64,000 bases of DNA from assembly GCA_019352195.1 (NCBI GenBank), contig JACAFG010000001.1, positions 2,485 through 66,484 of the forward strand, written 5' to 3'. This document shows, piece after piece, positions 4,194-57,781 of this stretch. The notes beneath the pieces are model-generated. The model was given only the letters and a program-made list of their open reading frames with translations. It was not told where the DNA came from and did not search any database. Every line of letters begins with the position of its first letter. The stretch's first letter is position 1. A program made the translations under genes and the position numbers. Source of the DNA: Candidatus Saccharimonadota bacterium. Lineage in GTDB: Bacteria > Patescibacteriota > Saccharimonadia > UBA4664.

Positions 4194-4819
4194 TGAAAAT
4201 CTTGATACTAGGCGCCGCTGGCCGTACGGGCCGCGAACTGGTTACCCAGGCAATGGCTGGTGGTAACGAAGTGACGGCCTTCGCCCGAGCCACGGAACAT
4301 TTGCCAACGCTTGAGGGCCTGCGTGTAATTGTGGGTGATGCTGAAAATCCCGACCAAGTTGCCGCAGCCGCTCAAGGCAATGATGCTGTCGTAAGCGCGC
4401 TAGGCCACACCTCCACAATGAGATCGGCAGCGCAAACCGTTGCGATCCAGACGCTCATAAAAACCTTGCCGGCCGGTACCAAAGTTATTAGCCTGACGGG
4501 CTTTGGCGTCCCGGATGCCAAGGACCCGGCCATTCCTTTGCTAGGCAAAATAATGAACGGGGTCATCAAACTCGTGCCAGGCGATATGTTTAATGACGGC
4601 CGTCGGCATGTGGAATTACTACGCGCGAGCAAATTGGCTTATACCGTTGTGAGGGCGCCCCGCCTTACCACAGCCGCGGGCACTGGCCACTATGAGCTCG
4701 GGTATTTTAGTCTCAGCGCCACCGATGCCATTGCCCGTGCCGACGTCGCGGCGGCCATGCTGGGCTGCCTGTCGAATAACACCTGGGATCGTCAAACGCC
4801 CATGATCCGCGCTCAATAA
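4190..4819 (+). CDS. NAD(P)-binding oxidoreductase (NmrA/atypical SDR-like)
   Basis: A Rossmann N-terminus (MKILILGAAGRTGRELV). ATGA overlap with the upstream gene. Confidence 0.7.
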   Translation: MMKILILGAAGRTGRELVTQAMAGGNEVTAFARATEHLPTLEGLRVIVGDAENPDQVAAAAQGNDAVVSALGHTSTMRSAAQTVAIQTLIKTLPAGTKVISLTGFGVPDAKDPAIPLLGKIMNGVIKLVPGDMFNDGRRHVELLRASKLAYTVVRAPRLTTAAGTGHYELGYFSLSATDAIARADVAAAMLGCLSNNTWDRQTPMIRAQ

Positions 4820-6143
4820 ACGAAGGGCCCCCGGCGCCACATGTTGCGCCGATACGGGTGAAAGCCCCCATCAGGAACAGGCGATGAGTGACCGTATCAA
4901 CCAACACAGGTCGTACACCGTTGTTTCCGCCGTCGACGTTGCTTTGGTTGCCACTGAGGCGGAAATTCATGTAGCCGAGGATCGTCCCCTTGGTCGAAAA
5001 ACTGGTCGTCTGGTTGGCGTAGGGGCAGCCAATGTTGTTGCCATGGCCACGGTGATTACCGCTGATGTAGACGTTGCCAACCACCGCGACACCTTGAGTG
5101 TCACCTTCGGTTTTGCGCGCCCAGTTGAAATGGCCAGTGGCCGGAACCACTTGAGCAACTCCGTTGGTCGTGCCGCCGCCCCCCCAGCCGAGGACCAGCA
5201 GGGGCGCGCCCGGGGAATGCAGGTCCCAATCAAGCGACAGGGCTTCTTGTCCGTCCCAAGTAGCCTCGGGCCCCACGCCCGAATCGGGCTTGAGCACGGG
5301 CTTGAAGGCCGGATAGGCTGCGCCCGTGGTGAGCGGGTAGAGTTGCGCCAAACCGTGTTGCTTGAGCGAGCCTACCTGTTCGAACAATCCGCCCACAAAC
5401 AACGAGTTGAGGTGCGGACTAAGAATCATGGTCATCACTGGGCCGCCCGAACCGGTCTGGTTCCAGAGCAGGGCCCCGGAACCAACCTTGACCGCGCTGA
5501 TGTGGCTGCTAGCACCACCGCAAAACACCGTGGTTGGGTTTACGCCGATGGCACGGACCTGACTGCTCGAACCTTGATTCCAGCTCGTCAGTTTGCCCAA
5601 GGGAAAACCAAGCGCCGCGATGTAATGGGGACTCGCGCCGGCAAAGGTAGTGAAATCACCGGCAATGTATACGACGCCCGGACCACTCTTGATGCTCCAC
5701 ACGTACGAATTGATCCCGGTTCCGGCGTAGACCAACGCGCCGGTCGCCTCGTTGACGATGGCGAAATTGGTGGCCGGATGGCTTACGCCGTTGGCACCAA
5801 TCACGTTGCGGAAGTTGCCGCCAAAGGCCGCGTAGCGCGTGGTGCCAGCGGCAAAGATTCCTAAGAGCCCGTCACCGTCGGTGGCGGGGAACGCAATGGG
5901 TACCCCGCTGAAAGCTGTAGTGCCTGCCGGCGGCTTGGCCGCCACCGGGTACGGGCATGGCGGAATAGCTGCGACCTGAATGGTGGTAGCGCTGTTGGCC
6001 GACTCGGGAATGGGCTGTTGGGACAGGGGCACATCGTGGGCGCCACTTGGTGGGGTTGGAGTGGCGCCGGCTGAGGTGATGGTCGAAACCACCAGTGTCA
6101 GCCCGAGAGCCGCCACAAAGGCAGCTCGCAAGAAGTTGGACAT
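4713..6143 (-). CDS. secreted Gly-rich repeat (beta-propeller-like) protein, high GC
   Basis: A signal peptide (MSNFLRAAFVAALGLTLVVSTITSAGA) and repeated G-rich beta-strand motifs. GC is clearly above its neighbours. The 3' end overlaps the convergent gene by about 107 nt. Confidence 0.6.
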   Translation of the reverse strand: MSNFLRAAFVAALGLTLVVSTITSAGATPTPPSGAHDVPLSQQPIPESANSATTIQVAAIPPCPYPVAAKPPAGTTAFSGVPIAFPATDGDGLLGIFAAGTTRYAAFGGNFRNVIGANGVSHPATNFAIVNEATGALVYAGTGINSYVWSIKSGPGVVYIAGDFTTFAGASPHYIAALGFPLGKLTSWNQGSSSQVRAIGVNPTTVFCGGASSHISAVKVGSGALLWNQTGSGGPVMTMILSPHLNSLFVGGLFEQVGSLKQHGLAQLYPLTTGAAYPAFKPVLKPDSGVGPEATWDGQEALSLDWDLHSPGAPLLVLGWGGGGTTNGVAQVVPATGHFNWARKTEGDTQGVAVVGNVYISGNHRGHGNNIGCPYANQTTSFSTKGTILGYMNFRLSGNQSNVDGGNNGVRPVLVDTVTHRLFLMGAFTRIGATCGAGGPSFIERGSWAFDDPRCYSTGSPAWPPRRRHGQWHRWR

Positions 6144-28590: not shown

Positions 28591-29935
28591 TAAACCCTCC
28601 TGTCTGCGTGACGGTATTGCCATTGCTGGTGACCACCACATCCCAGCTCCCGGTGGGTGCGCCGGTAAAGTTAAACGTTCCAGACAACGATGTGTCACCG
28701 CCTCCGCTCGTAATGCCGGTAGCGTTAATATCGGGTTGTCCAGCTGATTTAAGCGTAATCGTGCTACTTGAAGACAGGTGCGTGCCCGTAATTGTCATAA
28801 CCATGGCGTTGTTGCCGGTCGACGATGCGTTGGGACTCACATTAGTGATGGTGGGGTAGTTGGAGTTGGTCGTAACTACCAGGTTTACCGCACTCGTCGT
28901 ACCTGGCGCCAATATAAGCGGCGCGTACGGCTGAGCCGACACCAGGTAGTATCCAGATGCTACCGCAAATGAGTAACTGTCCCATTCCAGACCCGTTAGA
29001 TTGATATTGCCAGTGCCATCGGTGGTATTGGCTATTGAGTATTTACTCACCGAGGGGTTTTGGTAAATTGTTTTCGCTCCACTCGTGGTAACTTTGAGCG
29101 CGCTCACCGGGTTACCGTTGGTATCTTCCACGTGCAGGCTTAAGTTTGACGTGTGGTCAATCGACAGCGTAATCGCCGTTACCTGCTGAACAAGCACATT
29201 CGGATTTACGATAGTGGCGGTTTGGGGACCTGCTGGGTCAGCGGTACTCCCAGAGGTTGAGTAGCCCGGCAGCGACGCGGTCACCACGTATCTATTGCTA
29301 GAATCCAGCGGCAAGTCGGGCACAGTGACAAAACCAAGATTGTCGGTGGTAGTAGCAATATTAACGTCCGGGTTAGGGTTAGGGTTGAATATTGTCACGT
29401 TGGCCTGCGGGACGGGGTTACCATTGGAATCGATCACCTTAATGGACAACACTCCCGTGTTGCTTGATGTTTCCGACGCCTTGGCTGCCAGATCAGTAGT
29501 TAGTTGCGCCACCAACTGCCCGCTCGTTTTGAGATACACGCTGATTTCGGCGCGTTTGTAGTCTCCGGGGTTTTTATCAACCGGCTTACCCGGAATAGTT
29601 CCGGCCGCGTTCCCGTCATAGGGGTCATCTACGTACTTAATGCTGGTGTTCACGGTAAAGGTATATCCGCCGCGAACCAGAATCTGGTTGTCGGGCAGAA
29701 TTCCCGGCGGGTAAATTTCGCCGAACTGGGTAGCTAGACTTTGGTAAGGCAAATCGCGCAGGTTTTCTATTTGTTCCTGGGCCAAGGCCAGACCAATCGC
29801 GCGGGCTTTACCGACCGTTACCACGTGCAAGTTATCGATAAACAGCTGAGAAATAGCCGTTACCATAATCGTCATCACCACCAAGCCCACTATGGTCTCG
29901 ATGAGCGTAAAACCGGCCTCACCTCGTCGCGTCAT
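28577..29935 (-). CDS. large prepilin-type protein (minor pilin/adhesin-like, 452 aa)
   Basis: MTRRGEAGFTLIETIVGLVVM classic class III signal plus a long Thr/Ser/Asn-rich beta-rich C-terminal domain. Confidence 0.8.
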   Translation of the reverse strand: MTRRGEAGFTLIETIVGLVVMTIMVTAISQLFIDNLHVVTVGKARAIGLALAQEQIENLRDLPYQSLATQFGEIYPPGILPDNQILVRGGYTFTVNTSIKYVDDPYDGNAAGTIPGKPVDKNPGDYKRAEISVYLKTSGQLVAQLTTDLAAKASETSSNTGVLSIKVIDSNGNPVPQANVTIFNPNPNPDVNIATTTDNLGFVTVPDLPLDSSNRYVVTASLPGYSTSGSTADPAGPQTATIVNPNVLVQQVTAITLSIDHTSNLSLHVEDTNGNPVSALKVTTSGAKTIYQNPSVSKYSIANTTDGTGNINLTGLEWDSYSFAVASGYYLVSAQPYAPLILAPGTTSAVNLVVTTNSNYPTITNVSPNASSTGNNAMVMTITGTHLSSSSTITLKSAGQPDINATGITSGGGDTSLSGTFNFTGAPTGSWDVVVTSNGNTVTQTGGFSVTP

Positions 29936-29962
29936 GTCCGCATTATAACGCTTAAGCTCACC

Positions 29963-29990
29963 AAAAACGACCCCGAAGGGTCGTTTTTGG
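29963..29990. terminator. bidirectional hairpin between pilA and the minor-pilin genes
   Basis: aaaaacgacccc-gaa-ggggtcgttttt. Confidence 0.6.
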
Positions 29991-30011
29991 TCCGGTCAGG
30001 ATAACGACTTA

Positions 30012-30443
30012 TTAGTTGTTGTTAACCAGTTGGAAAGTGCGGGTCGTGCAAGGAGCTACCGGTGCGATGGTTGCAGTACCATTGTCGCCACCGTTCTCGA
30101 GGCAAGCCGTGAGGTCGTAGGTCGTGTTTGAAGCAGCCGGAGTGTACACGTACACGTAGGGCGACGTGTTCTTCGGGTCGGTAGGAACTGCCTTCATGAT
30201 TGGCGTTGTACCGGTGGTCAACGTGTTCATGTCAACTGGGTAAATGTTGTTGGAAACAAAGTACTCTTCCATTCCTTTTTGGATAGCGCGCAGGTCAGTC
30301 TTGCGCTGAGTGTCACGAGCTTTCTTTGGCGCGGACGTGATGTTTGGGATAATCAGCAGGGCCAGGATGCCGATAATCACGATGACGATGAGGAGCTCGA
30401 GCAGGGTAAATCCGCCTTGCTTCCTCAAAATTTTCTTAAGCAC
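30012..30443 (-). CDS. pilA: type IV major pilin (PilA-like)
   Basis: MLKKILRKQGGFTLLELLIVIVIIGILA prepilin signal. 143 aa. Confidence 0.85.
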   Translation of the reverse strand: MLKKILRKQGGFTLLELLIVIVIIGILALLIIPNITSAPKKARDTQRKTDLRAIQKGMEEYFVSNNIYPVDMNTLTTGTTPIMKAVPTDPKNTSPYVYVYTPAASNTTYDLTACLENGGDNGTATIAPVAPCTTRTFQLVNNN

Positions 30444-30624
30444 GAGTGCTCACCTCCTTACTAATTTGTGGACCAATAAAGCGTGGGCTCTATTTAAGCC
30501 AACTATAAAGCGCTTACGCTTGCGTGTCAATCATGTCTTGGCTAAGGCCATAAACGCAAACCGGCCCGGATGCCGCTCATAGAGCGACATCCGGGCCATG
30601 TGGTTGGTCGGGGCGGAAGGAATT

Positions 30625-31527
30625 TCAGCCGATGGTCTTCGGCTTGATTCCGACTGTCTCGAGCAGCAGATCGCCGCCCGGTTTCCCGAGGCAAAGCCCC
30701 AGGAGGATGTACTTGCCGTTCTCGCAGTTGGCCAGGATGTGCCTGGCCAATGCCACCGAAGGCAGGCTGGACGGTGAAGCCGAAGCAGCGGTGGGAACGA
30801 TCTTGCCGTCGTTGCCGGGAGCCCGCGGGGTGTTGCGCTTCAGAAAGGTGGCGGCGTGGGCGGCGCGGCTCGCTTCGTCGGCGTTGGCTTCTTCGCTCTC
30901 GACGACCCGCACGATCTTGTAGGACCTGCGAATCGAGAGCTGCTCGACGACCCGCCGAATGATCCAGGTGAGGACCAGCCCCGCTCCTATCGCCGCGATG
31001 GGCGTTAGGAGCATGCGGTGGTTGGCGAGCCAGCCGGCGGGAAGTGGGCAGTAGGTGTAGAACCCCCACCCGGCCGCCGCAGCCAACACGACGAACAGCG
31101 TCGGCCACACGAACAGTGCCCGGATGTCGTCACGCTGGTTGGCGCGGATGACGTAGTCGGGCTTGGCCTTCACCAAGATACCGGCCTCGTCGGTGTGGTC
31201 CTCGTCCATCCCCGCGTACTTGCGGTAGTGGATGTCCGAGAGCTTGTACACGATGGTAGCCGCCAGAGCGCCCGAGATGATGGGTATGACGTACGTGTAC
31301 GGCGAGCCAGTCCTGGTGAAGCCGACCACGATATCGCCGATGAGGGCGAAGAGGCCGAGTGCTGCCACGGCGAAGACCTCCGGTCGGAGGTCGTGTGTCA
31401 GCATGCGGTGGCCGGACACCTCCACTCGGTAGCCGACTTTTCCGAACCACACCAGAAACGCCGCCACGATGATGATAGCGATCATCGCGCCTGCGAACGC
31501 TCCAACGGAGCTGAAAATGGTTACCAT
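30625..31527 (-). CDS. high-GC hypothetical membrane protein inserted between pilC and pilA
   Basis: Six or more TM helices and a GGAAGG RBS. GC is far above its neighbours, with dense antisense ORFs typical of high-GC DNA. No PilD motifs. Confidence 0.5.
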   Translation of the reverse strand: MVTIFSSVGAFAGAMIAIIIVAAFLVWFGKVGYRVEVSGHRMLTHDLRPEVFAVAALGLFALIGDIVVGFTRTGSPYTYVIPIISGALAATIVYKLSDIHYRKYAGMDEDHTDEAGILVKAKPDYVIRANQRDDIRALFVWPTLFVVLAAAAGWGFYTYCPLPAGWLANHRMLLTPIAAIGAGLVLTWIIRRVVEQLSIRRSYKIVRVVESEEANADEASRAAHAATFLKRNTPRAPGNDGKIVPTAASASPSSLPSVALARHILANCENGKYILLGLCLGKPGGDLLLETVGIKPKTIG

Positions 31528-31704
31528 GATGTGAAATTCCTTCCAGATTGTGCGAGCATGTGCGAGGCAAACGCCCCGCACATGCGTGGCTATTTGCCGA
31601 TTGATCATACTAACTCATTTTATGGTTTTTGTCAAGGTTATGGTTTCCAAATGTAAGCGTTTTACCAAGCGCTTTAATAACCATAGCAACGTCGATGCTA
31701 AAGC

Positions 31705-32922
31705 TTAAGTTCCGCTTTCCAGAGCCGTAATTGGGCCAAATACCGAAATAACAATAAAACCAACCATGCCGCCAAGCACGATAATAAGAATCGGTTCAAT
31801 AATCGAGGTGATACCAGCTACGACAGTATCAACTTCTTTTTCGTAAAAATCAGCGAGTTTTAGCAAAATTTCATCCATCTGGCCGGTCTCTTCACCGACG
31901 GCAATCATCTGACCCACGATGGCCGGAAAGTTTTTTGAAGCTCTGATAGGTTCGCTCATAGGGCGCCCGTTTTTTACCTTGGTGGCCACATCGGCCAGTT
32001 CATCGCGGTACACCGAGTTACCCAAAGCGCTTTTGGTTGAGTTAATGGCATCGAGCACACTAATGCCGGAGGCCATAAGCGAACCGAACGTCCTGGCAAA
32101 TCGCGCTACGTTCACCTTTACGATAATTGGTCCCATTATCGGCACCTTCAGCATAATCCGGTCGACCACCCGTTTACCCGCTTCAGTTCGGTACCAACGG
32201 ATAAACAGCACGATGCCTCCGACGATCCCACCAATAATAAGCCAGTAGTAGGTGGTGAGCGTCTTAGAGATGGTCAGCATCAGCACCGTGTACCACGGCA
32301 AGGCAATACCGCCGTCTTTGAAGATGCTGGCAAGTTTTGGCACAATTACCGTCATGAGGAAAAAGAACGCCCCAAAGGTTGCCACAGTAATAACTCCCGG
32401 ATAAATCATGGCCGAGCGGATCTTGCCTACCACTTCGGCGTCTTTTTCCTGCTGGGTCGCCAGTCGCTCGAGGACATTGTCCAAAATACCGCCGCTTTCA
32501 CCGGCTCGCACCATGTTGACGTAAATATTGTTAAAGACCTCGGGGTGCAGCGCCATCGCGTTGGCCAGCGTTGCGCCGCCTTCAACCTGTTTCGAGATGT
32601 CGGCAATGGCCGCCCGTAGCCGCTTCGACTCGGACTGCTGTGACAAAATAGCGAGCGACTGCACAATGGGCACGCCGGCATTAATCATGGTGGCAAACTG
32701 GCGGCTAAAGATAACTTTATCCTGAAGTTTTACCTTGGGGGTGATGAATTTATCGAGCAGACTCGTTTTATCACCCGCACTCGAGTGGTCTTCTTTCACC
32801 AAAATGGGGGACAAGCCTTTTTCGATTAAACTCGCTGTAGCTGCGGCACGATCGATGGCTACCATCGTACCTTTTTGAATTAGACCGCCTTTATTGCGGG
32901 CACTGTAGGTAAAACTAGCCAT
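31705..32922 (-). CDS. pilC: type IV pilus inner-membrane platform protein PilC (GspF family)
   Basis: A 405 aa product with duplicated GspF domains and three TM segments. Confidence 0.85.
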   Translation of the reverse strand: MASFTYSARNKGGLIQKGTMVAIDRAAATASLIEKGLSPILVKEDHSSAGDKTSLLDKFITPKVKLQDKVIFSRQFATMINAGVPIVQSLAILSQQSESKRLRAAIADISKQVEGGATLANAMALHPEVFNNIYVNMVRAGESGGILDNVLERLATQQEKDAEVVGKIRSAMIYPGVITVATFGAFFFLMTVIVPKLASIFKDGGIALPWYTVLMLTISKTLTTYYWLIIGGIVGGIVLFIRWYRTEAGKRVVDRIMLKVPIMGPIIVKVNVARFARTFGSLMASGISVLDAINSTKSALGNSVYRDELADVATKVKNGRPMSEPIRASKNFPAIVGQMIAVGEETGQMDEILLKLADFYEKEVDTVVAGITSIIEPILIIVLGGMVGFIVISVFGPITALESGT

Positions 32923-34919
32923 TATTCTCTCGTCACGCGTAAGACTTCTTCGATGGTAGTCTGTCCCATGAGAGCCTTCACAAAGCCGTCTTGCTGCATG
33001 GTAAGCATACCGTCGCGCACGGCTTGTAGCTGAATATCATCCGATGTTGCGTGGCTAGTGATCATGCGCGAAATAGCCTGGGTTACTTCAAGGACTTCGT
33101 AGATACCCATGCGGCCGAGATATCCGGCGCCACCGCAATTATCGCAACCTCCACCTGGTCGGTAGAGCAAAAACTGCCCGGATTTTAGCTGCGATGGATC
33201 AACCGCTGGGGCGGCCTCGGGGGCGGTTGATGCCACGGCCGTAGATGCACCAGCCGTTTTGGGCGCGCCCGCTTCGGCTGCAGAACGGTTGATAATGTTA
33301 GGATCAGCCGCAATTTTGTCTAAAATACCGTTAGTAACTTGAATGTCGTGGACCGGCTGAATTACGCGGCCCTTTTTGTGCTCGGTGGGTTCTATAGCAG
33401 CCATTTTTGGCGGTGGAGCTTCGGCTGTTTGAGCTGCCACCGCAACTTCACCCTTCATTTCGTGGAAGTGCTTGAGCGACGCCTCCAGCTGGAAATCACG
33501 CTTGATGTTAGCCATCTCGGCGGTTTCTGGAACATACGGGATGCGACAGACGTTGCATAATCGCCGCACCAAACGTTGACCAATAACGGTGTTTACCGTT
33601 GAGGCAATCAAGAACGGCTCAATACCCATATCCAATAGACGCGGCAAACACGTGGCCGCGTTGTTGGTGTGAAGTGTACTTAGTACCACGTGACCAGTAA
33701 GAGCAGCCTGCACCGCAAGGTCGGCCGTCTCACCGTCTCGTACCTCACCAACCATGATGATGTTGGGGTCTTGCCTTAGCAGTGCGCGCAGTCCAGCCGC
33801 AAAGGTCATGCCGGCTTTAGGGTTAGTTTGAGTTTGGTTAACCCCAGAAATGCGGTATTCCACCGGGTCTTCAATGGTAGAAATATTGACGGCCGGTGTA
33901 TTGAGTAAGCTCAGCACCGAGTACAGCGTAGTACTCTTACCCGATCCGGTAGGTCCCGTCACCAGGGTCATGCCGTGGGGTTTGTGGAGGTTGCGGCCAA
34001 TTACTTCGAGGCTGCGGCCCTCAAAGCCCAATTCTTCGAGCGTTTGAGCGCGCGTCGACTCGTCCAAAATACGCATTACCACCTTTTCGCCGTCCATAAT
34101 TGGCAAGGTTGAAACACGCAGCGCCACTTGCTTTGAGCCCAAAGTAAACTTAAACCGGCCGTCCTGGGGAATGCGGTGCTCGTCGATTTTGAGGTTGGCC
34201 AAAATCTTGATACGTGAGATTACGGCCAGCAAAATAGGCTTTGGCAGCGTCATCGTTTCGCGCAAAATACCGTCGATGCGGTAGCGCACCTGGACGATGT
34301 TTTCGCGCGGCTCGAGGTGAATATCAGACGCCCGGCTCTTGACCGCATATTCTAAAATAACGTTAACCGTTTTAGCAATCGGTGCATCTTCAGCTAAATC
34401 TTTGGCCGAGATCTTCTCAGTTTGTTCTTCGGCATCGGCACTGGAGTCTTTAATGGCTTTGGTGATTTCGCTCGAAATTTCACCTTTGTATTGGTCGAGC
34501 GCGCCCGCAATATCGGCAGCTGTCGCCATATAAATGCGCAGTTTGCCGCCAATTTGCTTGGTAATAAAGTCGGCCGCCTGAAAGTCTTCGGGGTCTGCCA
34601 TGGCCAGCTGCAGCTGATCTTCGGTAGTGCCAAACAATACTGCCTGATACTTGCGCGCGATGCGCTCCGGAATTTTTAGTAAGATCTCACGGGGAATTTT
34701 TACATCACCTAACTCTACAAATGGTACTTCGAGGCTGGCGGCGTAGAGCTGCGTGAGGTCTTTTTCGCTCATTAGTTTATGTTTTAGCACATTGCCGAGC
34801 AAGCTATCGTTGGATCCTTCAACAGGCATAACTTCACTAAGAGCCGCCTCCTTAACTTTTCCGGAGGCAATTAGCAGCTTCTTTAAATCGGGATCAGCAA
34901 TGCGCATAGTTATGACCAT
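32922..34919 (-). CDS. pilB: type IV pilus assembly ATPase PilB (GspE family) with an insertion in the C-terminal zinc-binding region
   Basis: GPTGSGKSTT Walker A, Asp box, His box, and CNVC...CDNCGG. The start is ambiguous (TTG 34952 / ATG 34919 / ATG 34907). Confidence 0.9.
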   Translation of the reverse strand: MVITMRIADPDLKKLLIASGKVKEAALSEVMPVEGSNDSLLGNVLKHKLMSEKDLTQLYAASLEVPFVELGDVKIPREILLKIPERIARKYQAVLFGTTEDQLQLAMADPEDFQAADFITKQIGGKLRIYMATAADIAGALDQYKGEISSEITKAIKDSSADAEEQTEKISAKDLAEDAPIAKTVNVILEYAVKSRASDIHLEPRENIVQVRYRIDGILRETMTLPKPILLAVISRIKILANLKIDEHRIPQDGRFKFTLGSKQVALRVSTLPIMDGEKVVMRILDESTRAQTLEELGFEGRSLEVIGRNLHKPHGMTLVTGPTGSGKSTTLYSVLSLLNTPAVNISTIEDPVEYRISGVNQTQTNPKAGMTFAAGLRALLRQDPNIIMVGEVRDGETADLAVQAALTGHVVLSTLHTNNAATCLPRLLDMGIEPFLIASTVNTVIGQRLVRRLCNVCRIPYVPETAEMANIKRDFQLEASLKHFHEMKGEVAVAAQTAEAPPPKMAAIEPTEHKKGRVIQPVHDIQVTNGILDKIAADPNIINRSAAEAGAPKTAGASTAVASTAPEAAPAVDPSQLKSGQFLLYRPGGGCDNCGGAGYLGRMGIYEVLEVTQAISRMITSHATSDDIQLQAVRDGMLTMQQDGFVKALMGQTTIEEVLRVTRE

Positions 34920-35180
34920 ATTAGCATAAGAACTAACAAGCGATATAACCAACTTTTCATTGACAAATGCCGTTTTTAAAGCGTAACAACTTTACCCATC
35001 GCTACAGCTCTACCCGGTGAATTCAAATGATGGCCGCGCCCGCAAAAGCCGCCAGCACCACCCAAGCCGCCGACTCAAATCAACCGCGGCGGCGGCATCT
35101 GTGCGTCGAGGGAGGGGGTTATGGTTGCTCTTGCTCCTTGGTGGTCTTACCATTGGCTCATATTAGTTATGAGTTTTGCC

Positions 35181-36153: not shown

Positions 36154-37032
36154 ATGTCCCGTCGTCCGCCCAACCTGCTCAGCCTACCCGGCTCTAGGGT
36201 GATGAAATTCATACAGGTGCTGTCCGATGCCGATTTGCGCGCCGAAGAAGCCCTCGAGATGATCGCTAACCCAGAACTCGCGAGCCACTGGGTTTGGAAG
36301 CTGCGCGCCGGCAAGCTGGCCGAATACGCCGAGCCTTTCCACGGAATCTTCACTCAGCCTGAAGTTCAGGTAGAAAATCTGCGTCGCTGGAACGAACACC
36401 TGAGGCTGAATTTCTCAGACAACCGCATTAAGGCCATGCGCGACAGCATTCCTGCCAATCGTGACAACGGTCCAAACATGGGGCTCACCCTGTGCTGGAC
36501 TAAGCAAAGCTTCGAGCTAACCATCGCCGGCAAAATCACTGTCCTCCAAGGCCATTTTGGGACCAGCCTAACATCTCGAGTTGGCGAGCGAATGCTACAC
36601 CGCCTCGATCGTAAGATCGAGTCCGGGTGGGTTGAAGGCGAAGACCGCCTGTGGTGGGAATTTATCGACCTCGGGCGCACCCGTGGTTATGGTGTTCGCG
36701 AAGCTGGGTCACGCATGGCGGGCTTCTCGGTGCTCGACGCCATCTGCCAGTCACCGGCTTATTTTCAGCACACCACTCAACCACGCCCAGGGCTCGTCAT
36801 CGGCAACCTCAGAGAGTGGTCCCAGCGCGGTTATCCCAACGCGTGGCGTTATCTCGCTCTCACGCCCGTACTCGGTATTGAGGGCGGGGCGGTCCTAACG
36901 TATAGTGACGGCTTTGCCCAGCCGGATTACACGGTACCGTTGTCCGTGCGGGCCGATTTCGGCGAGTCCGAAGCCCGGTTAGTGACGGCTCGAAGTCCAG
37001 TTACCGATCACCGCCCACAAAGCGCCTTCTGA
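36154..37032 (+). CDS. high-GC hypothetical protein (orphan)
   Basis: A 292 aa ORF with GC elevated relative to its flanks. No domain recognised. Confidence 0.5.
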   Translation: MSRRPPNLLSLPGSRVMKFIQVLSDADLRAEEALEMIANPELASHWVWKLRAGKLAEYAEPFHGIFTQPEVQVENLRRWNEHLRLNFSDNRIKAMRDSIPANRDNGPNMGLTLCWTKQSFELTIAGKITVLQGHFGTSLTSRVGERMLHRLDRKIESGWVEGEDRLWWEFIDLGRTRGYGVREAGSRMAGFSVLDAICQSPAYFQHTTQPRPGLVIGNLREWSQRGYPNAWRYLALTPVLGIEGGAVLTYSDGFAQPDYTVPLSVRADFGESEARLVTARSPVTDHRPQSAF

Positions 37033-45522: not shown

Positions 45523-45654
45523 CTATACCAATGAAGCTATGAGCCTGTCTTAAATACACGACGCAAAATTATTAAAAATTAACAGAGGTAGATACCGTAT
45601 CCATACCCTATGCATACGGTATACAAATCCTTTATAAGCCATTCACAAACCATT

Positions 45655-46068
45655 ATGAGTAAAACGCTAGACGATAAGCAGCAATTTATAGAACTACGAG
45701 CAAAAGGTTATAGCTTTAGCTGTATTGCTGACGAACTGGGTATAAGCAAACCTACCCTTATAGGCTGGTCGCAAGAAGAAGATACCAACAAAGACATACA
45801 CAACCTGCAAACGCTGTATATGGATGAGCTACAAGAGAAATACGCTATGACCAAACGCCACAGAATAGCGGTATTTGGCGAGGTTTTAAACCGTGCTAAA
45901 GACGAATTATCCAACCGAGACCTATCAACGCTACCGACAGATAAGCTAATAAACTTAGTTATTAAGCTGAGCGATACCCTAAAGCAAGACGAAACCGAAT
46001 TAGAACTACACGGCGAAGTGGAGCTACCAATGCTTAGAATTGGCGAGCTGCAAAAGTGGAATATTTAG
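45655..46068 (+). CDS. HTH-domain protein (island regulator; terminase-small-subunit-like or resolvase-HTH-like)
   Basis: LRAKGYSFSCIADELGISKPTLIGW helix-turn-helix. Confidence 0.5.
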   Translation: MSKTLDDKQQFIELRAKGYSFSCIADELGISKPTLIGWSQEEDTNKDIHNLQTLYMDELQEKYAMTKRHRIAVFGEVLNRAKDELSNRDLSTLPTDKLINLVIKLSDTLKQDETELELHGEVELPMLRIGELQKWNI

Positions 46069-46157
46069 CAGACCAAAACTTGTCCAAAAATTGACCACTT
46101 ACCTCTTTTTAATACCCCTGTAACCCTGTATAATAAAGGTATTAAGTGTGAGGTTGT

Positions 46158-46340
46158 ATGGAACAAGTAAAATCACCAGAATATCTAACTATCAGGCAAG
46201 CCTGCGAGCTATTACAAGTACACCCAAACACACTCCGCAGCTGGGACAAAAAAGGCGTATTAAAGGCTCACCGCATAGGTGTGCGTGGCATACGCCGCTA
46301 TAAGCGTGAAGACCTAATAAAGTTTATGGAGAAAAAGTAA
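46158..46340 (+). CDS. excisionase-like / MerR-superfamily HTH DNA-binding protein (Xis/AlpA-like)
   Basis: A 60 aa product: LTIRQACELLQVHPNTLRSWDKKGVLKAHRIGVRGIRRY. A GAGG RBS. Confidence 0.6.
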   Translation: MEQVKSPEYLTIRQACELLQVHPNTLRSWDKKGVLKAHRIGVRGIRRYKREDLIKFMEKK

Positions 46341-47194
46341 TGGGCGTTGATTTTGTACGGTTTAAGGCAACAGATAATGTTGAATTACAGGGCTGGTTAA
46401 ATAACGAAAGTGGTAACACGGCAGTTGTTCATATTCACGGTATGTCAGGTAATGGTTATGAAAATTACTTCTTAGATGACTTGCGGCAGATGTACGCCAA
46501 GCAGAGCGTATCCCTGTTTACGATTGATACACGAGGACGAGGCATAATTAGCGACTTTAGGCAGGGCGAAGGTTGGAAGCACGCAGGTAGCTGCTTTGAG
46601 CTGTTTGACGAAAGCATACACGACATACAAGGGGCGATAGACTATCTAAAGTCACTTGGAAAAACAAGTTTTATACTACAAGGTCACTCTTTGGGCTGCA
46701 CAAAGGTGGTTAATTATGTAATTACACAAAACCCAACAGATGTTGAAAAAGTAATCTTACTAGCCCCAACTGATATGACTGGCTGGGCAAATACAGAGCC
46801 TAAGCACCAAGATTATCTACTAAAAGCTAAGCAGCTAATCGCAGCTGGTAAGGGCGAAGAATTAGTTGACGCACAATGCTGGCTAGATAAGACCCCAATA
46901 TCGGCTCAAACTTACCCCACAATATGCGAAAAAGGCAGTTCGGCTGATATTTATGGTATCCGTGAAGGTGATACTTTATTAAGTAAAGTTGAACTACCTA
47001 TGCTAATACCCTATGGCAGTGCCGATATTGGCATTACGCAGATTGACGGCTCAATTGATAAGTGGATTGAGCGTGTAAACAAAATCAAGAACAATAACAC
47101 CCAAATATCGGTAATAGAAGGGGCAGCACACGGTTATAGCGGTTTTGAAGGGCAATTAGCGGAAATAATAGAAAGATTTATGGAGCAAAAATGA
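46340..47194 (+). CDS. alpha/beta-fold hydrolase (cargo)
   Basis: GHSLG nucleophile elbow. 284 aa. Confidence 0.7.
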   Translation: MGVDFVRFKATDNVELQGWLNNESGNTAVVHIHGMSGNGYENYFLDDLRQMYAKQSVSLFTIDTRGRGIISDFRQGEGWKHAGSCFELFDESIHDIQGAIDYLKSLGKTSFILQGHSLGCTKVVNYVITQNPTDVEKVILLAPTDMTGWANTEPKHQDYLLKAKQLIAAGKGEELVDAQCWLDKTPISAQTYPTICEKGSSADIYGIREGDTLLSKVELPMLIPYGSADIGITQIDGSIDKWIERVNKIKNNNTQISVIEGAAHGYSGFEGQLAEIIERFMEQK

Positions 47195-47919
47195 AGATAG
47201 CACTAGTAACAGGCTCAACCAAGGGTATTGGTCTAGCGACCGCACACAGACTATATGATGAAGGTACAACAGTAATCCTAAATGCTGTGAGCAATAGTGA
47301 CGAGGTAATACTGGACGAGTTTAGCGACAAATCTAGGGTAGCTTTTTATGCTGCTGATATATCAGACAAGCAAGCACTTATAAGCCTCAGGGATTTTATT
47401 AAAGAAAAATTTGGTAGACTAGATTATTTGGTAGCAAATGCTGGTGTCTTGCCACTACCTGCTGGAATAAATGATATTACAGACGAAAACATTAACCAGA
47501 CGATAGACATAAACCTGAAAGGTACTTTTAATACTGTCAAAATACTCGGTGAACTTGTTCAGGCAACTTCAAAAACTGGCTCAATCGTAACCATAACTTC
47601 CGTTGACGGTATTATTGGTGAACCTTACGGCGTAATCTATTCGGCAACCAAAGCTGGTATTATTTCACTAACTAAGTCTTTTGCACGAAACTACAAAGAA
47701 CCACTGGTGCGTGTTAATGGTATTGCACCAGGCTTAATTGACACTCCGCTTTCGGCAAGTACAGGTGAAGACCCAAGCTGGACGACAGATTTATCAGTAA
47801 TAAGGCGTATGGGTAGTGCGGAAGAAGTTGCAGCAGCAGTTCATTTCCTACTCTCGGAAGACGCAGCCTTTATTACTGGTCAGATTTTGGCAGTAGACGG
47901 TGGATTTACACTAAAATGA
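47191..47919 (+). CDS. SDR family oxidoreductase (cargo)
   Basis: TGSTKGIG cofactor-binding motif, NAG, and a YSATK catalytic tetrad. Confidence 0.85.
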   Translation: MKIALVTGSTKGIGLATAHRLYDEGTTVILNAVSNSDEVILDEFSDKSRVAFYAADISDKQALISLRDFIKEKFGRLDYLVANAGVLPLPAGINDITDENINQTIDINLKGTFNTVKILGELVQATSKTGSIVTITSVDGIIGEPYGVIYSATKAGIISLTKSFARNYKEPLVRVNGIAPGLIDTPLSASTGEDPSWTTDLSVIRRMGSAEEVAAAVHFLLSEDAAFITGQILAVDGGFTLK

Positions 47920-47930
47920 GAAACTGATAA

Positions 47931-49862
47931 ATGGCTAAATCTAAAAAGCCAACAAATACTGTACGCAAGAAGCGTGCAAAAGTATTACTGCCGAAGGATA
48001 AGCAGCTTGAAGCCGAGCAACAGTTAGCTAAGCGTAAAGAAGCCAACCCAGATGCTTACAACCTACCTGCCAGCAAACGCAGCATACAAGACCTAACAAC
48101 TTACTTTGAAGCAGTTGAAGAAGGTACAAATGTTATATTGCCCAAAGAAAAACGCCGTTATGTCATTTACCTGCGTAAGTCTACCGATGATGAGGCTAAA
48201 CAGGTACGGTCGCTAGAAGACCAGCGGTCAGAGTGCCTAGAATTGGCTCACAGGCTGCAAATAACTATTAAAGAAGAAGATATTTTAGAAGAAAGTGCCT
48301 CTGCCAAAATATCAGGTAACCGACCTATCTTTGACGATATGCTAATGGGCTTTAGAACTGGCAAGTATCACGGTCTAATATCTTGGTCGCCAGACCGCAT
48401 ATCACGCAATATGAAGGAAGCTGGCGAGGTCATAGAGATGATTGACCACGAACTGATACAGGATTTACAGTTCAAAACTTACCAGTTTGAAAACAACCCC
48501 AACGGCAAAATGCTATTAGGCATATTATTTGCCACCTCTAAGCAGTATTCTGACAAATTATCGGTAGATGTTAAGCGTGGTACTGGCGGCAATATTAAAG
48601 AAGGTAAATATAATGGCGTAGTCAAAAAGGGCTACTTTGTAGACGCTAGCACTGGCTATTTCATACCTGACGGCTATAACTGGGACTTACTGCGTGAGGC
48701 AGCTAATATGAGGCTGTATGGGGGCAAAAACAACATTGAAATAGCCCAGTTCCTTAATGATAGCCGCCTAAGTATCCGCCGAGACCAAGACGAGCCGTTT
48801 AGCGTGGTCAAGGTAGATAAACAGATGGTTGGCGACATATTTGCTGACCCCTTTTACTTTGGGCTATATCACTATGGCAAGCACCTAGCTGACCTTACTG
48901 AGCTAACTGGTTTCTTGCCGCTAATAACGCCTGACGAATACATAACACTTAACCAAGTAATGGCAACCAACTTTGGCGAAAAATCTGCTCACAAAAGCGT
49001 TCAAAACAAGCGACTAGACTATGGGCTGCTGCGAGGCAAGGTTATTTGCGACTACTGCGATGAGCAAATGCAATTCCAGCACCAACAAGTTAAGCGAGGT
49101 AAAAATGCAGGCAGCTGGGTAATTAGCTTCTATTGCCGTAACCAAAACTGCTTTAGATTTGACAAAGATAAACAGGCAGAAGCTGGCGACTTCCCTAGTA
49201 AGAGCGTTAGAGCCAAGTACATTATGGCTGCCATTGAGTGGGAGCTACGCCACTGTACCAAAAAGAGCAAAAAAGCCTACCAAATGCATATTGATAAGCT
49301 CAGGGCGAAGCTGGCACAAGATACAGCGATTGCTAAGCGTAAACTGGCAGAAGCCGAGAATGACCTACGCACAAACGAAAAGCAGTATGCACGATACCAA
49401 CAGTTTCAGGTTGACCACCCTGACGATTATATAAAGCACCACAAAGGTAAGCTGGAACACTACCAACAACTTGTAAATGTAGCTAGCCACAATATAAAAC
49501 AGGCTAAGGCTGAGCTGGTACGGTTAAGTGTTGGATTGCCAACCGAGCAAGAGTTTTACGAACTTGTTAATTCGTATCTGTTAACACTACTAAAGACTAC
49601 TGATTTAATGGAACAAGACGCCGTATGTAATGAACTAGTGTTGAACCTACGAGTTAGGAACAACGCCGTCCCTGTTATAAAGCTAAATCCGCCATACAAT
49701 TTGCTGGCGGATTTAGCTGAAATATCTACTGGTCGGGGTGAAAGGACTCGAACCTTCGACCTCATGCTCCCAAAGCACGCGCGCTACCAACTGCGCCACA
49801 CCCCGATAAGTTGTCTTGAACCTGGTAATTATAGGCTAGGGAAGCGTCGAGGGTCAATTTAA
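47931..49862 (+). CDS. large serine recombinase (resolvase domain + recombinase domain + zinc ribbon + coiled coil)
   Basis: YLRKSTDDE...SLEDQ catalytic serine region, CDYCDEQ...CRNQNC zinc ribbon, 643 aa. The 3' 133 nt run antisense across tRNA-Pro. Confidence 0.85.
   Translation: MAKSKKPTNTVRKKRAKVLLPKDKQLEAEQQLAKRKEANPDAYNLPASKRSIQDLTTYFEAVEEGTNVILPKEKRRYVIYLRKSTDDEAKQVRSLEDQRSECLELAHRLQITIKEEDILEESASAKISGNRPIFDDMLMGFRTGKYHGLISWSPDRISRNMKEAGEVIEMIDHELIQDLQFKTYQFENNPNGKMLLGILFATSKQYSDKLSVDVKRGTGGNIKEGKYNGVVKKGYFVDASTGYFIPDGYNWDLLREAANMRLYGGKNNIEIAQFLNDSRLSIRRDQDEPFSVVKVDKQMVGDIFADPFYFGLYHYGKHLADLTELTGFLPLITPDEYITLNQVMATNFGEKSAHKSVQNKRLDYGLLRGKVICDYCDEQMQFQHQQVKRGKNAGSWVISFYCRNQNCFRFDKDKQAEAGDFPSKSVRAKYIMAAIEWELRHCTKKSKKAYQMHIDKLRAKLAQDTAIAKRKLAEAENDLRTNEKQYARYQQFQVDHPDDYIKHHKGKLEHYQQLVNVASHNIKQAKAELVRLSVGLPTEQEFYELVNSYLLTLLKTTDLMEQDAVCNELVLNLRVRNNAVPVIKLNPPYNLLADLAEISTGRGERTRTFDLMLPKHARYQLRHTPISCLEPGNYRLGKRRGSI
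49730..49805 (-). tRNA. tRNA-Pro (anticodon TGG), CCA encoded
   Basis: Reverse complement: CGGGGTG TG GCGC AGTTGGTA GCGC G CGTGC TTTGGGA GCATG AGGTC GAAGG TTCGAGT CCTTT CACCCCG A CCA. Confidence 0.8.
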
Positions 49863-50266: not shown

Positions 50267-51211
50267 GTGACCGTCATGGACGGTTACACGTACCGAGTAC
50301 CGAAGTACGAGATCTACCCGGTGTACAACCACCGAGAAGACGGTTCGGCGTACCCCGAACCGTCTTCCGAGACCGATTACGAAGTCTTTTCCGACTTCGT
50401 CGTTCCGAACGGGATGTGGGTACTCGAACGCCCGACCTTCGGCTGCACCTGGATCGTGGGGACGACCTACCAGCAGGTCTCATCCGAGCCCATCGATCTT
50501 CGGAGCTTGGCGTATCGTCGTACGCTCTGCATCTCGGACACACCGTTCGGCTTCGTCAAATCGGAAGAAGCTACGAGCGTGTGGGGTTCTTCCAAGCGGG
50601 TACCGACCGGTCCCTGCCTGCTGAAGTATGCCCGGCAGATTCACAAGGGTGAACTCGGCCAGGGGATTCAGATCCCCAAACTGAAGTTCGCTCGTGAATC
50701 GGCCGCGGCGGCCCGCAAGAACACCGAGTTCGAGCGTGGTCGCGACCAGAAGCGAAATCCCTTCCGCTGGGCCCGTCTCAGCGATGTCGTGGAGGCCGCT
50801 GGCCTCCCGGCCAACGTCCTGCTGCAGCGCTACTGGGCCTTCAATGGCTCAAGTATTGACTGGAGTCAGGACTACCGTACTCACCGCACCGGAGAATTTC
50901 TCCACGTGCGGATCGGCGAGACTGCCGAAGAGATCACTGCTCAGCCGTACCGCCCCACCTACCTCGACAAGACAGAGGCGGGCAACCAGATCCGTATGGA
51001 GTCAGAAGTTCACACCACCTGGATCAGGGCTGGCTTCGCCAACACCTTGCTCCGCCTGGTGGCGCTGAACTACCAGCCCGACCCCCTGTCCATCGCCTGC
51101 ACTATCAGGCCCGACCCCGACAAGGCCCCAGCCTTATCGGGGTCTTGTCATATCTGGATGATTGAACGGAATTTGATATCATTGCCCAGGCTCCGAATTA
51201 GATCTAAGTAG
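50267..51211 (+). CDS. high-GC hypothetical protein (orphan, 314 aa)
   Basis: A strong GGAGGTG RBS, a terminator downstream, and GC well above its AT-rich flanks. Confidence 0.55.
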   Translation: MTVMDGYTYRVPKYEIYPVYNHREDGSAYPEPSSETDYEVFSDFVVPNGMWVLERPTFGCTWIVGTTYQQVSSEPIDLRSLAYRRTLCISDTPFGFVKSEEATSVWGSSKRVPTGPCLLKYARQIHKGELGQGIQIPKLKFARESAAAARKNTEFERGRDQKRNPFRWARLSDVVEAAGLPANVLLQRYWAFNGSSIDWSQDYRTHRTGEFLHVRIGETAEEITAQPYRPTYLDKTEAGNQIRMESEVHTTWIRAGFANTLLRLVALNYQPDPLSIACTIRPDPDKAPALSGSCHIWMIERNLISLPRLRIRSK

Positions 51212-57289: not shown

Positions 57290-57781
57290 ATGAGCACCGA
57301 AGGCTCGTTCGTCGACGCGCTGCGGCGGCTACTCACTTTCGATGTGGCCCAAACCGCCAGTTGGGTCGATGGCACCACGCGCGTCCAACTCACGACGAGG
57401 ACGTCCTGGATCGATCGTAGCTACGAAGTGGTTTTCTACCACGGCAGTCACGACGAGGTCAGGATCATCGCGGGTCTCGTTCGGGCCTTGAATCAGTTGC
57501 AGTCGCAAAGTCCCTACGATTTCTGGCAGTGGCTCGTCACCCCTACGGGCGAACCCCTGCAGGTCCTTCCTCGCCGTAAGCTCGACACTATCGCTGACGC
57601 AGTGGCCAGTGCCCATACCGGTCGGCTCATCGCCGTGCTCCAGGTGCTCGGTCTGAACTTCGAGACGGTGCTGGCATACACCGGCTTCGCCGATTTCGAG
57701 GAGTTCCTCACCATCGCCGTGCTCGCCCATGAGCTGGGCGAGCCATTCGAAGACACGCGCGGTCAGCTCGTGTCGGCCTGA
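57290..57781 (+). CDS. high-GC hypothetical protein (163 aa)
   Basis: GC-rich, with a terminator downstream. No domain recognised. Confidence 0.45.
   Translation: MSTEGSFVDALRRLLTFDVAQTASWVDGTTRVQLTTRTSWIDRSYEVVFYHGSHDEVRIIAGLVRALNQLQSQSPYDFWQWLVTPTGEPLQVLPRRKLDTIADAVASAHTGRLIAVLQVLGLNFETVLAYTGFADFEEFLTIAVLAHELGEPFEDTRGQLVSA

Follow-up and report, generated by a model that had tools for sequence, protein, structure and literature searches.

An orphan membrane-protein gene of high GC content in the variable slot between pilC and pilA of a Saccharimonadia genome

Is a gene of very high guanine-plus-cytosine (GC) content, lying between the type IV pilus genes pilC and pilA of a Saccharimonadia genome, a recent arrival from another organism or an established part of its locus? 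The window analysed here is a whole stretch of 64,000 nucleotides (nt) from a Candidatus Saccharimonadota bacterium (GenBank assembly GCA_019352195.1, contig JACAFG010000001.1, positions 2,485 to 66,484 of the forward strand). The gene, called orfX in the following, occupies 30625..31527 on the minus (-) strand, to which all features described below belong unless stated otherwise, and encodes an orphan protein of 300 amino acids (aa). A reading made from the letters of this DNA alone, referred to here as the sequence-only reading, had described a foreign membrane-protein gene inserted among pilus genes, possibly acquired from an actinobacterial host and co-opted into pilus biology. That account is partly supported, in that the insertion, the atypical composition and the membrane protein are borne out but a recent actinobacterial acquisition is not. 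The interpretation favoured here, to which a probability of roughly 0.6 is assigned, is that orfX is an old, lineage-restricted accessory membrane-protein gene in a variable slot adjoining the major pilin gene.

A filter-free exhaustive HMMER scan of 1.84 billion protein representatives with a cut-off of E <= 1e-3 returned only two homologues, P0002 (285 aa, 36% identity, E = 1.6e-23) and P0003 (280 aa, 31% identity, E = 6e-14), and each cluster of the family is a single sequence out of ~15 billion. A profile search with the three-sequence alignment added no members, and neither a viral-contig scan nor tblastn against phage and plasmid collections found a relative of orfX. No significant family was found for the orfX protein or its orthologues in Pfam (scanned at E <= 0.01 with a 327-aa version of the open reading frame (ORF) discussed below), NCBIfam, PHROGs or PADLOC, and a sequence-profile search of the PDB with orfX gave no match. 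Three weak matches from a metagenome scan, confined to the N-terminal transmembrane (TM) stretch of an 806-aa protein on Bacteroidota-like contigs (L088-L090), were rejected as spurious. In other Saccharibacteria assemblies, whose pil loci are otherwise collinear, P0002 and P0003 are each encoded between a T2SSF (pilC) gene and an N_methyl pilin gene; the homologue-carrying loci lie on five contigs from JGI and Logan (L082-L086) and on a 1.09-Mb ENA contig (L087). The window protein (P0001) is identical to HJC99_00220 (MBW4060993.1), a hypothetical protein encoded on a 259-kb contig of the Candidatus Saccharibacteria metagenome-assembled genome (MAG) GCA_017884045.1. orfX is one of only three known members of an orphan family that is restricted to a narrow clade of Saccharimonadia and found only in the slot between pilC and pilA.

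The sequence-only reading had noted dense antisense ORFs in the GC-rich region, and antisense and off-frame ORFs are indeed abundant there, with 212, 96, 70 and 66 aa on the + strand and 188 and 146 aa on the - strand. The frame of orfX is the sole frame with collinear tblastx high-scoring segment pairs between related loci, indicating that orfX is a real protein-coding gene inherited in place. A longer ORF of 327 aa starting at 31608 was rejected because it begins within the -10 box of the promoter described below; the 300-aa start, taken as the real one for this reason, is also the one called by NCBI and agrees with the homologue N-termini.

The age of this inheritance can be judged from the three carriers. 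The pilC product is 89% identical to that of the window in L082-L086 and 80% identical in L087, and pairwise protein identity among the carriers is 80-89% for pilC, 66-81% for pilA and 26-31% for orfX. Nei-Gojobori estimates put synonymous divergence (dS) at saturation in every gene compared (1.1 to infinity), and a cassette shared at saturated dS predates a deep split and is not a recent import. The earlier claim of a foreign gene, in the sense of a recent or unique acquisition, fails on the finding that lineages with dS >= 1.1 have the cassette in common and that its non-coding parts are homologous across the three loci. The position of both homologues in the same slot, together with their enriched GC content at third codon positions (GC3), likewise indicates that orfX is not a recent one-off import. 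Nonsynonymous divergence (dN) is 0.75-0.87 for orfX, 0.08-0.19 for pilB, pilC, pilA and pilM, and 0.22-0.27 for a 452-aa minor pilin, and orfX evolves 5-10 times faster than pilC or pilA. Nevertheless, the proportion of nonsynonymous differences (pN) in orfX is 0.48-0.52, below the ~0.75 of unconstrained sequence, which points to some constraint. Separately, orfX was considered as the target of a diversity-generating retroelement and rejected, as a relaxed blastn comparison of 30500-31700 with the whole window gave no repeat >45 nt and no reverse transcriptase was present among the ORFs scanned, which were not every ORF.

The slot itself turns over. In a survey of 14 species representatives of the Genome Taxonomy Database (GTDB) whose pilC is 58-74% identical to that of the window, no detectable relative of orfX was found in any of the 14. 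The slot is empty in seven of them (L002, L005, L009, L011-L014), with no more than ~20-70 bp between the pilC stop and the pilA promoter, in agreement with the earlier description of orfX as an interruption of a pilB-pilC-pilA arrangement. In L003, L006, L007 and L010 the slot is filled by different inserts (0.6-1.2 kb), all with a promoter and a terminator of their own, that encode unrelated small proteins, several of them membrane proteins; GC3 reaches 0.80-0.86 in L006 and L010 and 0.72 in L003, and shows no increase in L007. All that is left in L004 is a terminator remnant resembling that of L003, L008 has ~300 bp without a convincing ORF, and in L015 a pilin-like match follows pilC almost directly, without a recognisable pilA leader. 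A hidden Markov model of the orfX family had no match (E > 0.5) to any ORF of the L002-L010 slot cassettes, and these cassettes are therefore not detectable relatives of orfX. The slot ORF of L010, the only slot cassette of this survey that was searched, is an orphan ORF (ORFan) with zero relatives found. The observation that would have told against the sequence-only reading, orthologues of genome-typical composition here in all relatives, is half borne out: orthologues at this position occur in the two closest known relatives and not in all relatives, and their composition is GC-shifted rather than typical of their genomes. As judged by these comparisons, orfX interrupts an ancestral pilC-pilA junction and is one of several alternative occupants of an overturning slot. 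Two further observations concern the surveyed loci. The spacer from pilC to the orfX orthologue of L087 (9494-10000) is 507 bp long, compared with 126-177 bp, and may hold a small ORF on the opposite strand; this is a further sign of slot turnover. The pilB match of L008 (CP064960.1, 3962-5971) is split into four adjoining tblastn segments, which suggests frameshifts, due either to a pseudogene or to sequencing errors.

The composition that first drew attention to the locus is confirmed and is specific to the gene. In 300-bp sliding windows GC is 0.62-0.67 over 30600-31500, as compared with ~0.50-0.53 on both sides, and drops to 0.43 afterwards, consistent with the claim of the sequence-only reading that it lies far above the flanks. 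The GC-richest stretch of the window is 30560-31590, and the maximum of the 64 kb is the 900-bp segment from 30551 (0.643, against a mean of 0.523 and a standard deviation (sd) of 0.043). The 300-aa ORF has an overall GC of 0.64 vs 0.50-0.53 in the flanking genes, and its values for the three codon positions (GC1/GC2/GC3 = 0.61/0.47/0.84) follow the pattern of a true high-GC gene. With GC3 of 0.84 vs 0.55-0.66 in pilB, pilC, pilA and the 452-aa minor pilin, orfX is the top GC3 outlier, at ~+3 sd, among 71 non-overlapping ORFs of the window (mean 0.574, sd 0.085), and its two-fold codon families lean strongly towards codons ending in C or G (Phe 0.82 vs 0.30, Ile 0.88 vs 0.40). Raised GC3 is a trait of the whole family and is weaker in both orthologues, at 0.66 in L082 (0.47-0.60 in neighbouring genes) and 0.72 in L087 (0.63-0.65 in neighbouring genes). 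The raised GC is limited to the segment from the 5' hairpin through the terminator of the cassette, the promoter region being as AT-rich as the genome elsewhere (spacer GC 0.435).

These values do not reveal a source. The preference of orfX for C or G at third positions (C3 vs G3) is the same as in resident genes, the shift being purely one of third-position GC, and its GC-normalised dinucleotide signature is unremarkable, at the 87th-92nd percentile. Because neither property separates orfX from resident DNA, a donor is not identifiable from composition, which marks something gene-specific at orfX without pointing to an origin. The persistence of a gene-specific GC3 excess at saturated synonymous divergence is a small puzzle. 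The excess could be the incompletely ameliorated legacy of a high-GC donor that is now untraceable, or it could be kept locally, for example by GC-biased recombination at an often-overturned slot. Its presence in all three copies may accordingly reflect slow amelioration, re-acquisition with replacement of the window copy by a GC-richer allele, or a local bias such as GC-biased gene conversion.

Comparison with the empty slots places the full cassette between the pilC stop codon and the -35 box of pilA (30531..31704), and its predicted promoter, Shine-Dalgarno (SD) sequence and terminator indicate that orfX is a complete, separately transcribed unit. A candidate sigma-70-type promoter, TTGACA-17 nt-TAGTAT, lies at 31607..31635 (consensus scan, 10/12), and the same TTGACA-N17-TAnnAT stands upstream of the orthologues in L082 and L087. 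The 5' untranslated region (UTR) contains a hairpin with a 13-bp stem and a 4-nt loop (31556..31585; inverted repeat I6; minimum free energy -32.5 kcal/mol, z = -4.4 vs shuffles), and the L082 and L087 orthologues have a different GC-rich hairpin in the same place, between the conserved AATCGGC and CAATCTGGAAGGA. The ribosome-binding site attributed to the gene from sequence alone is present as GGAAGGA (31538..31544, read from the sequence), 10 nt before the ATG at 31527, and CTGGAAGGA in this region is kept in 3/3 loci. At the other end, an intrinsic-terminator-like hairpin at 30562..30598 (inverted repeat I3 and terminator scan) has 17 pairs followed by GTTTGCGTTT; its stem, GGCCCGG...CCGGGCC, is kept in L082 and L087. 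Homology among the three loci extends to promoter, 5' UTR, post-stop motif and terminator. In 29900-32000, Rfam matches were all sub-threshold and lay on the terminator hairpin.

The coding sequence (CDS) is bracketed exactly, from SD to stop, by a 22-nt inverted repeat (I1; 5' arm 31523-31544, 3' arm 30615..30636) that is 82% complementary and includes a perfect 13-nt part, GGAAGGAATTTCA. Inside the 3' arm, directly after the orfX stop, is the anti-SD-like TTCCTTCC (30622-30615), and TCCTTCC follows the stop in all three orfX loci. The duplexes predicted between SD and post-stop motif have energies of -20.4, -22.2 and -19.4 kcal/mol, with shuffle p values of 0.003, 0 and 0.1, the last being that of L087. 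The conserved anti-SD TCCTTCC and the inverted repeat may allow the 5' and 3' ends of the mRNA to pair. The downstream arm of I1 also places a second SD and ATG on the opposite strand, facing the 96-aa antisense ORF 30632-30922; this ORF was rejected as a gene, there being no start codon at its position in L082 and L087. Around the cassette, 31651..31674 repeats a portion of the pilA promoter (30492-30515) in degenerate form (71%; direct repeat D3, spacing 1159 nt) and could represent a promoter duplication.

The product of orfX is predicted to contain five hydrophobic helices, by a Kyte-Doolittle scan and by the helices of a low-confidence AlphaFold2 (AF2) model, so that the earlier description as a membrane protein holds but its count of at least six helices does not. 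By the positive-inside rule it would be an inner-membrane protein with an N-out/C-in orientation, with both long loops and the C-terminal domain predicted to be cytoplasmic and external loops of only ~6 and ~11 residues. Besides the five TM helices, the predicted layout comprises cytoplasmic loops that are conserved, a Pro/Ala/Ser linker that is disordered and, at the C-terminus, a small helical domain. Homology within the family runs end to end, and the motifs kept are WF..GY after TM1, D.RP before TM2, Y....I.Y..Y after TM3, and, at the C-terminus, LSDDEI.RYAR...G...L...YLG.P and NG[KR]xxLxxxxLGxP; the invariant D46 and D134 fall in the predicted cytoplasmic loops. The AF2 model built from the three-sequence alignment (predicted local distance difference test 46.8, predicted template modelling score 0.28) is too poor for any fold comparison. 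An hhalign comparison of the TM1-3 and TM4-5 halves gave a probability of 0.9% for internal duplication.

If orfX is an old accessory gene of this slot, the cassette (promoter, 5' hairpin, SD, CDS, anti-SD-like motif and terminator) would have entered before the three carriers diverged and stayed since, supplying a five-helix inner-membrane protein with its conserved residues in two cytoplasmic loops and a small helical C-terminal domain. The fixed address beside the major pilin gene and the location of the conserved residues suggest, tentatively and with rather more doubt than confidence, that the protein is a non-essential accessory of the type IV pilus machine or modulates it, and that from the membrane it would contact cytoplasmic parts of PilC, PilB or PilM through its conserved loops and C-terminal domain. 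Several observations weigh against the interpretation as a whole. Its own promoter and terminator insulate orfX from the pil operon, and a pilus role is only weakly supported by position alone. Carriers have a pilA that is 71-81% identical to that of the window, and the non-carriers L006 and L008-L010 one that is 71-75% identical; carrier pilA is thus no more distinct than non-carrier pilA, and there is no sign in these few genomes that pilin alleles co-vary with orfX. The GC3 of the window copy (0.84) is far above that of the orthologues, and a single old acquisition followed by steady amelioration predicts otherwise. Pfam, NCBIfam, PHROGs, PADLOC and PDB sequences yield no match that would indicate a function, and conservation statistics from a family of only three members are thin.

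The main rival, which has a real if minor chance of being correct, is that orfX is a hitch-hiking orphan without pilus function and that the gap between transcription units is a permissive landing pad for weakly constrained genes. The self-sufficient promoter and terminator would be expected in that case, as would the unrelated ORFan cassettes, or nothing, in the slot of sister lineages and the very high dN, and the window holds other GC-rich ORFs without a Pfam match (4713-6143, 36154-37032, 50267-51211 and 57290-57781). However, orfX has been retained intact and at full length in three lineages at saturated dS with its topology and motifs conserved, its pN is clearly under the unconstrained level, and its regulatory elements are conserved, including the post-stop anti-SD motif; purely neutral DNA is not expected to survive in this manner in reduced genomes of ~1 Mb. 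Recent capture from a high-GC actinobacterial host with co-option into pilus biology is very unlikely. Cultivated Saccharibacteria are naturally competent epibionts of Actinobacteria, and this counts in favour of such a capture, together with the GC3 of 0.84, the shift of two-fold codons to C/G endings and the many relatives with an empty slot. Competence is mentioned for Saccharibacteria in passages of PMC11623550. Yet the exhaustive search gave only the two same-slot genes of Saccharibacteria, with no other homologue at E <= 1e-3 among 1.84e9 representatives and none added by the profile search, and phages, plasmids and viral contigs were without match, which leaves this part of the sequence-only reading without support beyond GC. 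Moreover, the cassette is present in two further lineages at saturated dS with homologous non-coding flanks, and so is not recent, while the dinucleotide signature reaches only the 87th-92nd percentile, the C3/G3 preference is as in resident genes, and the expression signals, rich in AT, look like those of resident genes.

The idea that orfX is a defence, exclusion or toxin-like module acting at the membrane, perhaps by keeping out phages that enter via the pilus, likewise has slim odds; its translation would be restrained by a hok-type fold-back of the mRNA pairing the SD with the post-stop anti-SD. This would explain why a 22-nt inverted repeat, perfect over 13 nt, brackets the CDS exactly and why the anti-SD motif and strong predicted duplexes recur in three loci, and the fast evolution and slot turnover resemble those of arms-race loci; but neither PADLOC nor PHROG gives a match, the protein, 300 aa long and with a cytoplasmic domain, does not resemble small type I toxins, almost nothing is predicted outside the membrane beyond loops of ~6 and ~11 residues, the duplex in L087 is not significant (p = 0.1), and no antisense RNA or partner gene was identified, although an antisense promoter was not examined. 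An artefact, either a chimeric assembly or non-coding GC-rich DNA with chance ORFs, is hardly credible: the genome is a MAG and high-GC DNA does yield long ORFs in several frames, but the same protein occurs on two contigs from NCBI and Logan, homologous cassettes and junctions recur in independent JGI, Logan and ENA assemblies, and conservation is frame-specific. Among broader explanations, it is conceivable, if improbable, that in this Saccharimonadia clade the pilC-pilA gap is a hot spot of recombination at which self-contained orphan cassettes of high GC are repeatedly acquired, exchanged and lost. In that scenario DNA imported by the pilus or competence machinery would recombine through homology arms, provided on one side by the pilA promoter and leader, which hardly vary, and on the other by the 3' end of pilC, and the cassettes, the orfX family among them, would tune pilus function, host range or resistance to phages that depend on the pilus. 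Because Saccharibacteria use type IV pili to find and hold their bacterial hosts and the slot adjoins the major pilin gene, it would be a sensible place for determinants of host range or phage resistance. The interpretation of orfX as an old accessory gene also carries a caution: in the genome of an epibiont a GC anomaly resembles host DNA, and in this case comparison reveals an old orphan of one clade with a family-wide GC3 excess.

The pilus genes around orfX all lie on the - strand in the order pilB, pilC, orfX, pilA, three more pilin-like genes, pilM, pilN and pilO. The upstream neighbour, pilC (31705..32922; Pfam T2SSF, E = 3e-58), encodes the platform protein and is preceded by pilB (32922-34952; Pfam T2SSE); the downstream neighbour, pilA (30012..30443; Pfam N_methyl and T2SSG), is the major pilin candidate and has its promoter, TTGACA-17-TATAGT, at 30502-30530 (consensus scan, 11/12). 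The pilA promoter and its ~60-nt leader (30444-30530) are far better conserved than the surrounding coding sequence (L002-L014, L082 and L087). In this region GGAGGTGAGCACTC hardly varies, even between genomes in which pilC identity is as low as 58-74%, and a 7-bp hairpin near the 5' end of the leader is kept in 13 loci with some wobble and compensatory changes. The leader may be regulatory or stabilising. In PilB, a low-complexity Ala/Pro-rich insertion of ~100 residues (~residues 480-610) splits the C-terminal cysteine motif (CNVC ... CDNC), and the Pfam T2SSE match consists of two stretches, the best of which ends at residue 479.

Elsewhere in the window, a low-GC island at 45610-49862 (GC 0.41-0.44 vs ~0.52) encodes a helix-turn-helix protein, an alpha/beta hydrolase, a short-chain dehydrogenase and, at 47931-49862, a 643-aa large serine recombinase, and probably represents a mobile element that has integrated; nowhere else in the window does the dinucleotide signature deviate as strongly as in this recombinase island, at 48-50 kb. 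It is followed by a GC-rich 314-aa ORF without a Pfam match (50267-51211, GC3 0.75). Further ORFs with above-average GC or GC3 and without a Pfam match are those at 4713-6143 (476 aa, GC 0.62), at 57290-57781 (163 aa, GC3 0.77) and at 36154-37032 (292 aa, GC 0.59); the last lies between the genes for RNase Y and tsaD and has no counterpart at the syntenic position in L087. Lineage-specific orphans of high GC content may be typical of this genome.

Several known systems invite comparison with orfX. The type IV pilus loci T4P-1 and T4P-2 of TM7x, described among cultivated Saccharibacteria in PMC11623550, resemble the present locus in combining pilB, pilC, pilins and pilM/N/O in a Saccharibacteria genome; in contrast to the present locus, no gene for a membrane protein is mentioned between pilC and the gene of the major pilin in the passages of that paper that describe them. 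None of the three members of the orfX family comes from a cultivated strain. Like the lineage-specific ORFans of the Candidate Phyla Radiation (Patescibacteria), orfX has no homologues outside a narrow clade, evolves fast and lacks annotation; it differs from other such ORFans in its fixed chromosomal address, its conserved regulatory architecture and the strong GC3 excess common to its orthologues. Duplexes predicted to sequester the SD by 5'-3' pairing (-19 to -22 kcal/mol across the three loci, with two reaching significance) would, if they form, recall the hok mRNA, whereas hok encodes a single-TM toxin of <60 aa with a cis-antisense RNA and orfX a 300-aa protein with five predicted TM helices.

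The order of genes invites comparison with the prepilin peptidase PilD (Peptidase A24), which follows pilC in the classical pilBCD operon and has six to eight helices. The orfX product is likewise a polytopic membrane protein of similar size encoded after pilC. Identity with PilD was nevertheless rejected: the orfX protein, P0002 and P0003 give no match to PF01478 (Peptidase_A24) or PF06750 (DiS_P_DiS), no family member has a GxGD motif, five helices are predicted rather than six to eight, and most relatives lack orfX, whereas an essential peptidase could not be missing.

The closest analogy appears to be the accessory-gene region beside pilA in Pseudomonas aeruginosa. The pilin islands of that species carry variable, strain- or lineage-specific accessory genes, tfpO/pilO, tfpW, tfpX, tfpY and tfpZ, beside the major pilin gene; many of the accessory products are membrane proteins, the composition of the islands is atypical, and their content is patchy between relatives. 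Similarly, orfX lies in a variable region directly adjoining the major pilin gene, is atypical in composition and is patchily distributed. In contrast to the Pseudomonas island, orfX is upstream of pilA, between pilC and pilA and on the same strand, with its own promoter and terminator. Its product has no sequence similarity to TfpO/W/X/Y/Z (HMMER, Pfam, NCBIfam) and is without a glycosyltransferase or O-antigen-ligase domain, and no co-variation with pilin type was seen in the few genomes compared. By this analogy, position and variability would be common to the two systems, whereas sequence, orientation and linkage to the pilin are not. The orfX family is a new and tiny orphan family in a kind of arrangement that is already known, a variable slot beside a pilin gene.

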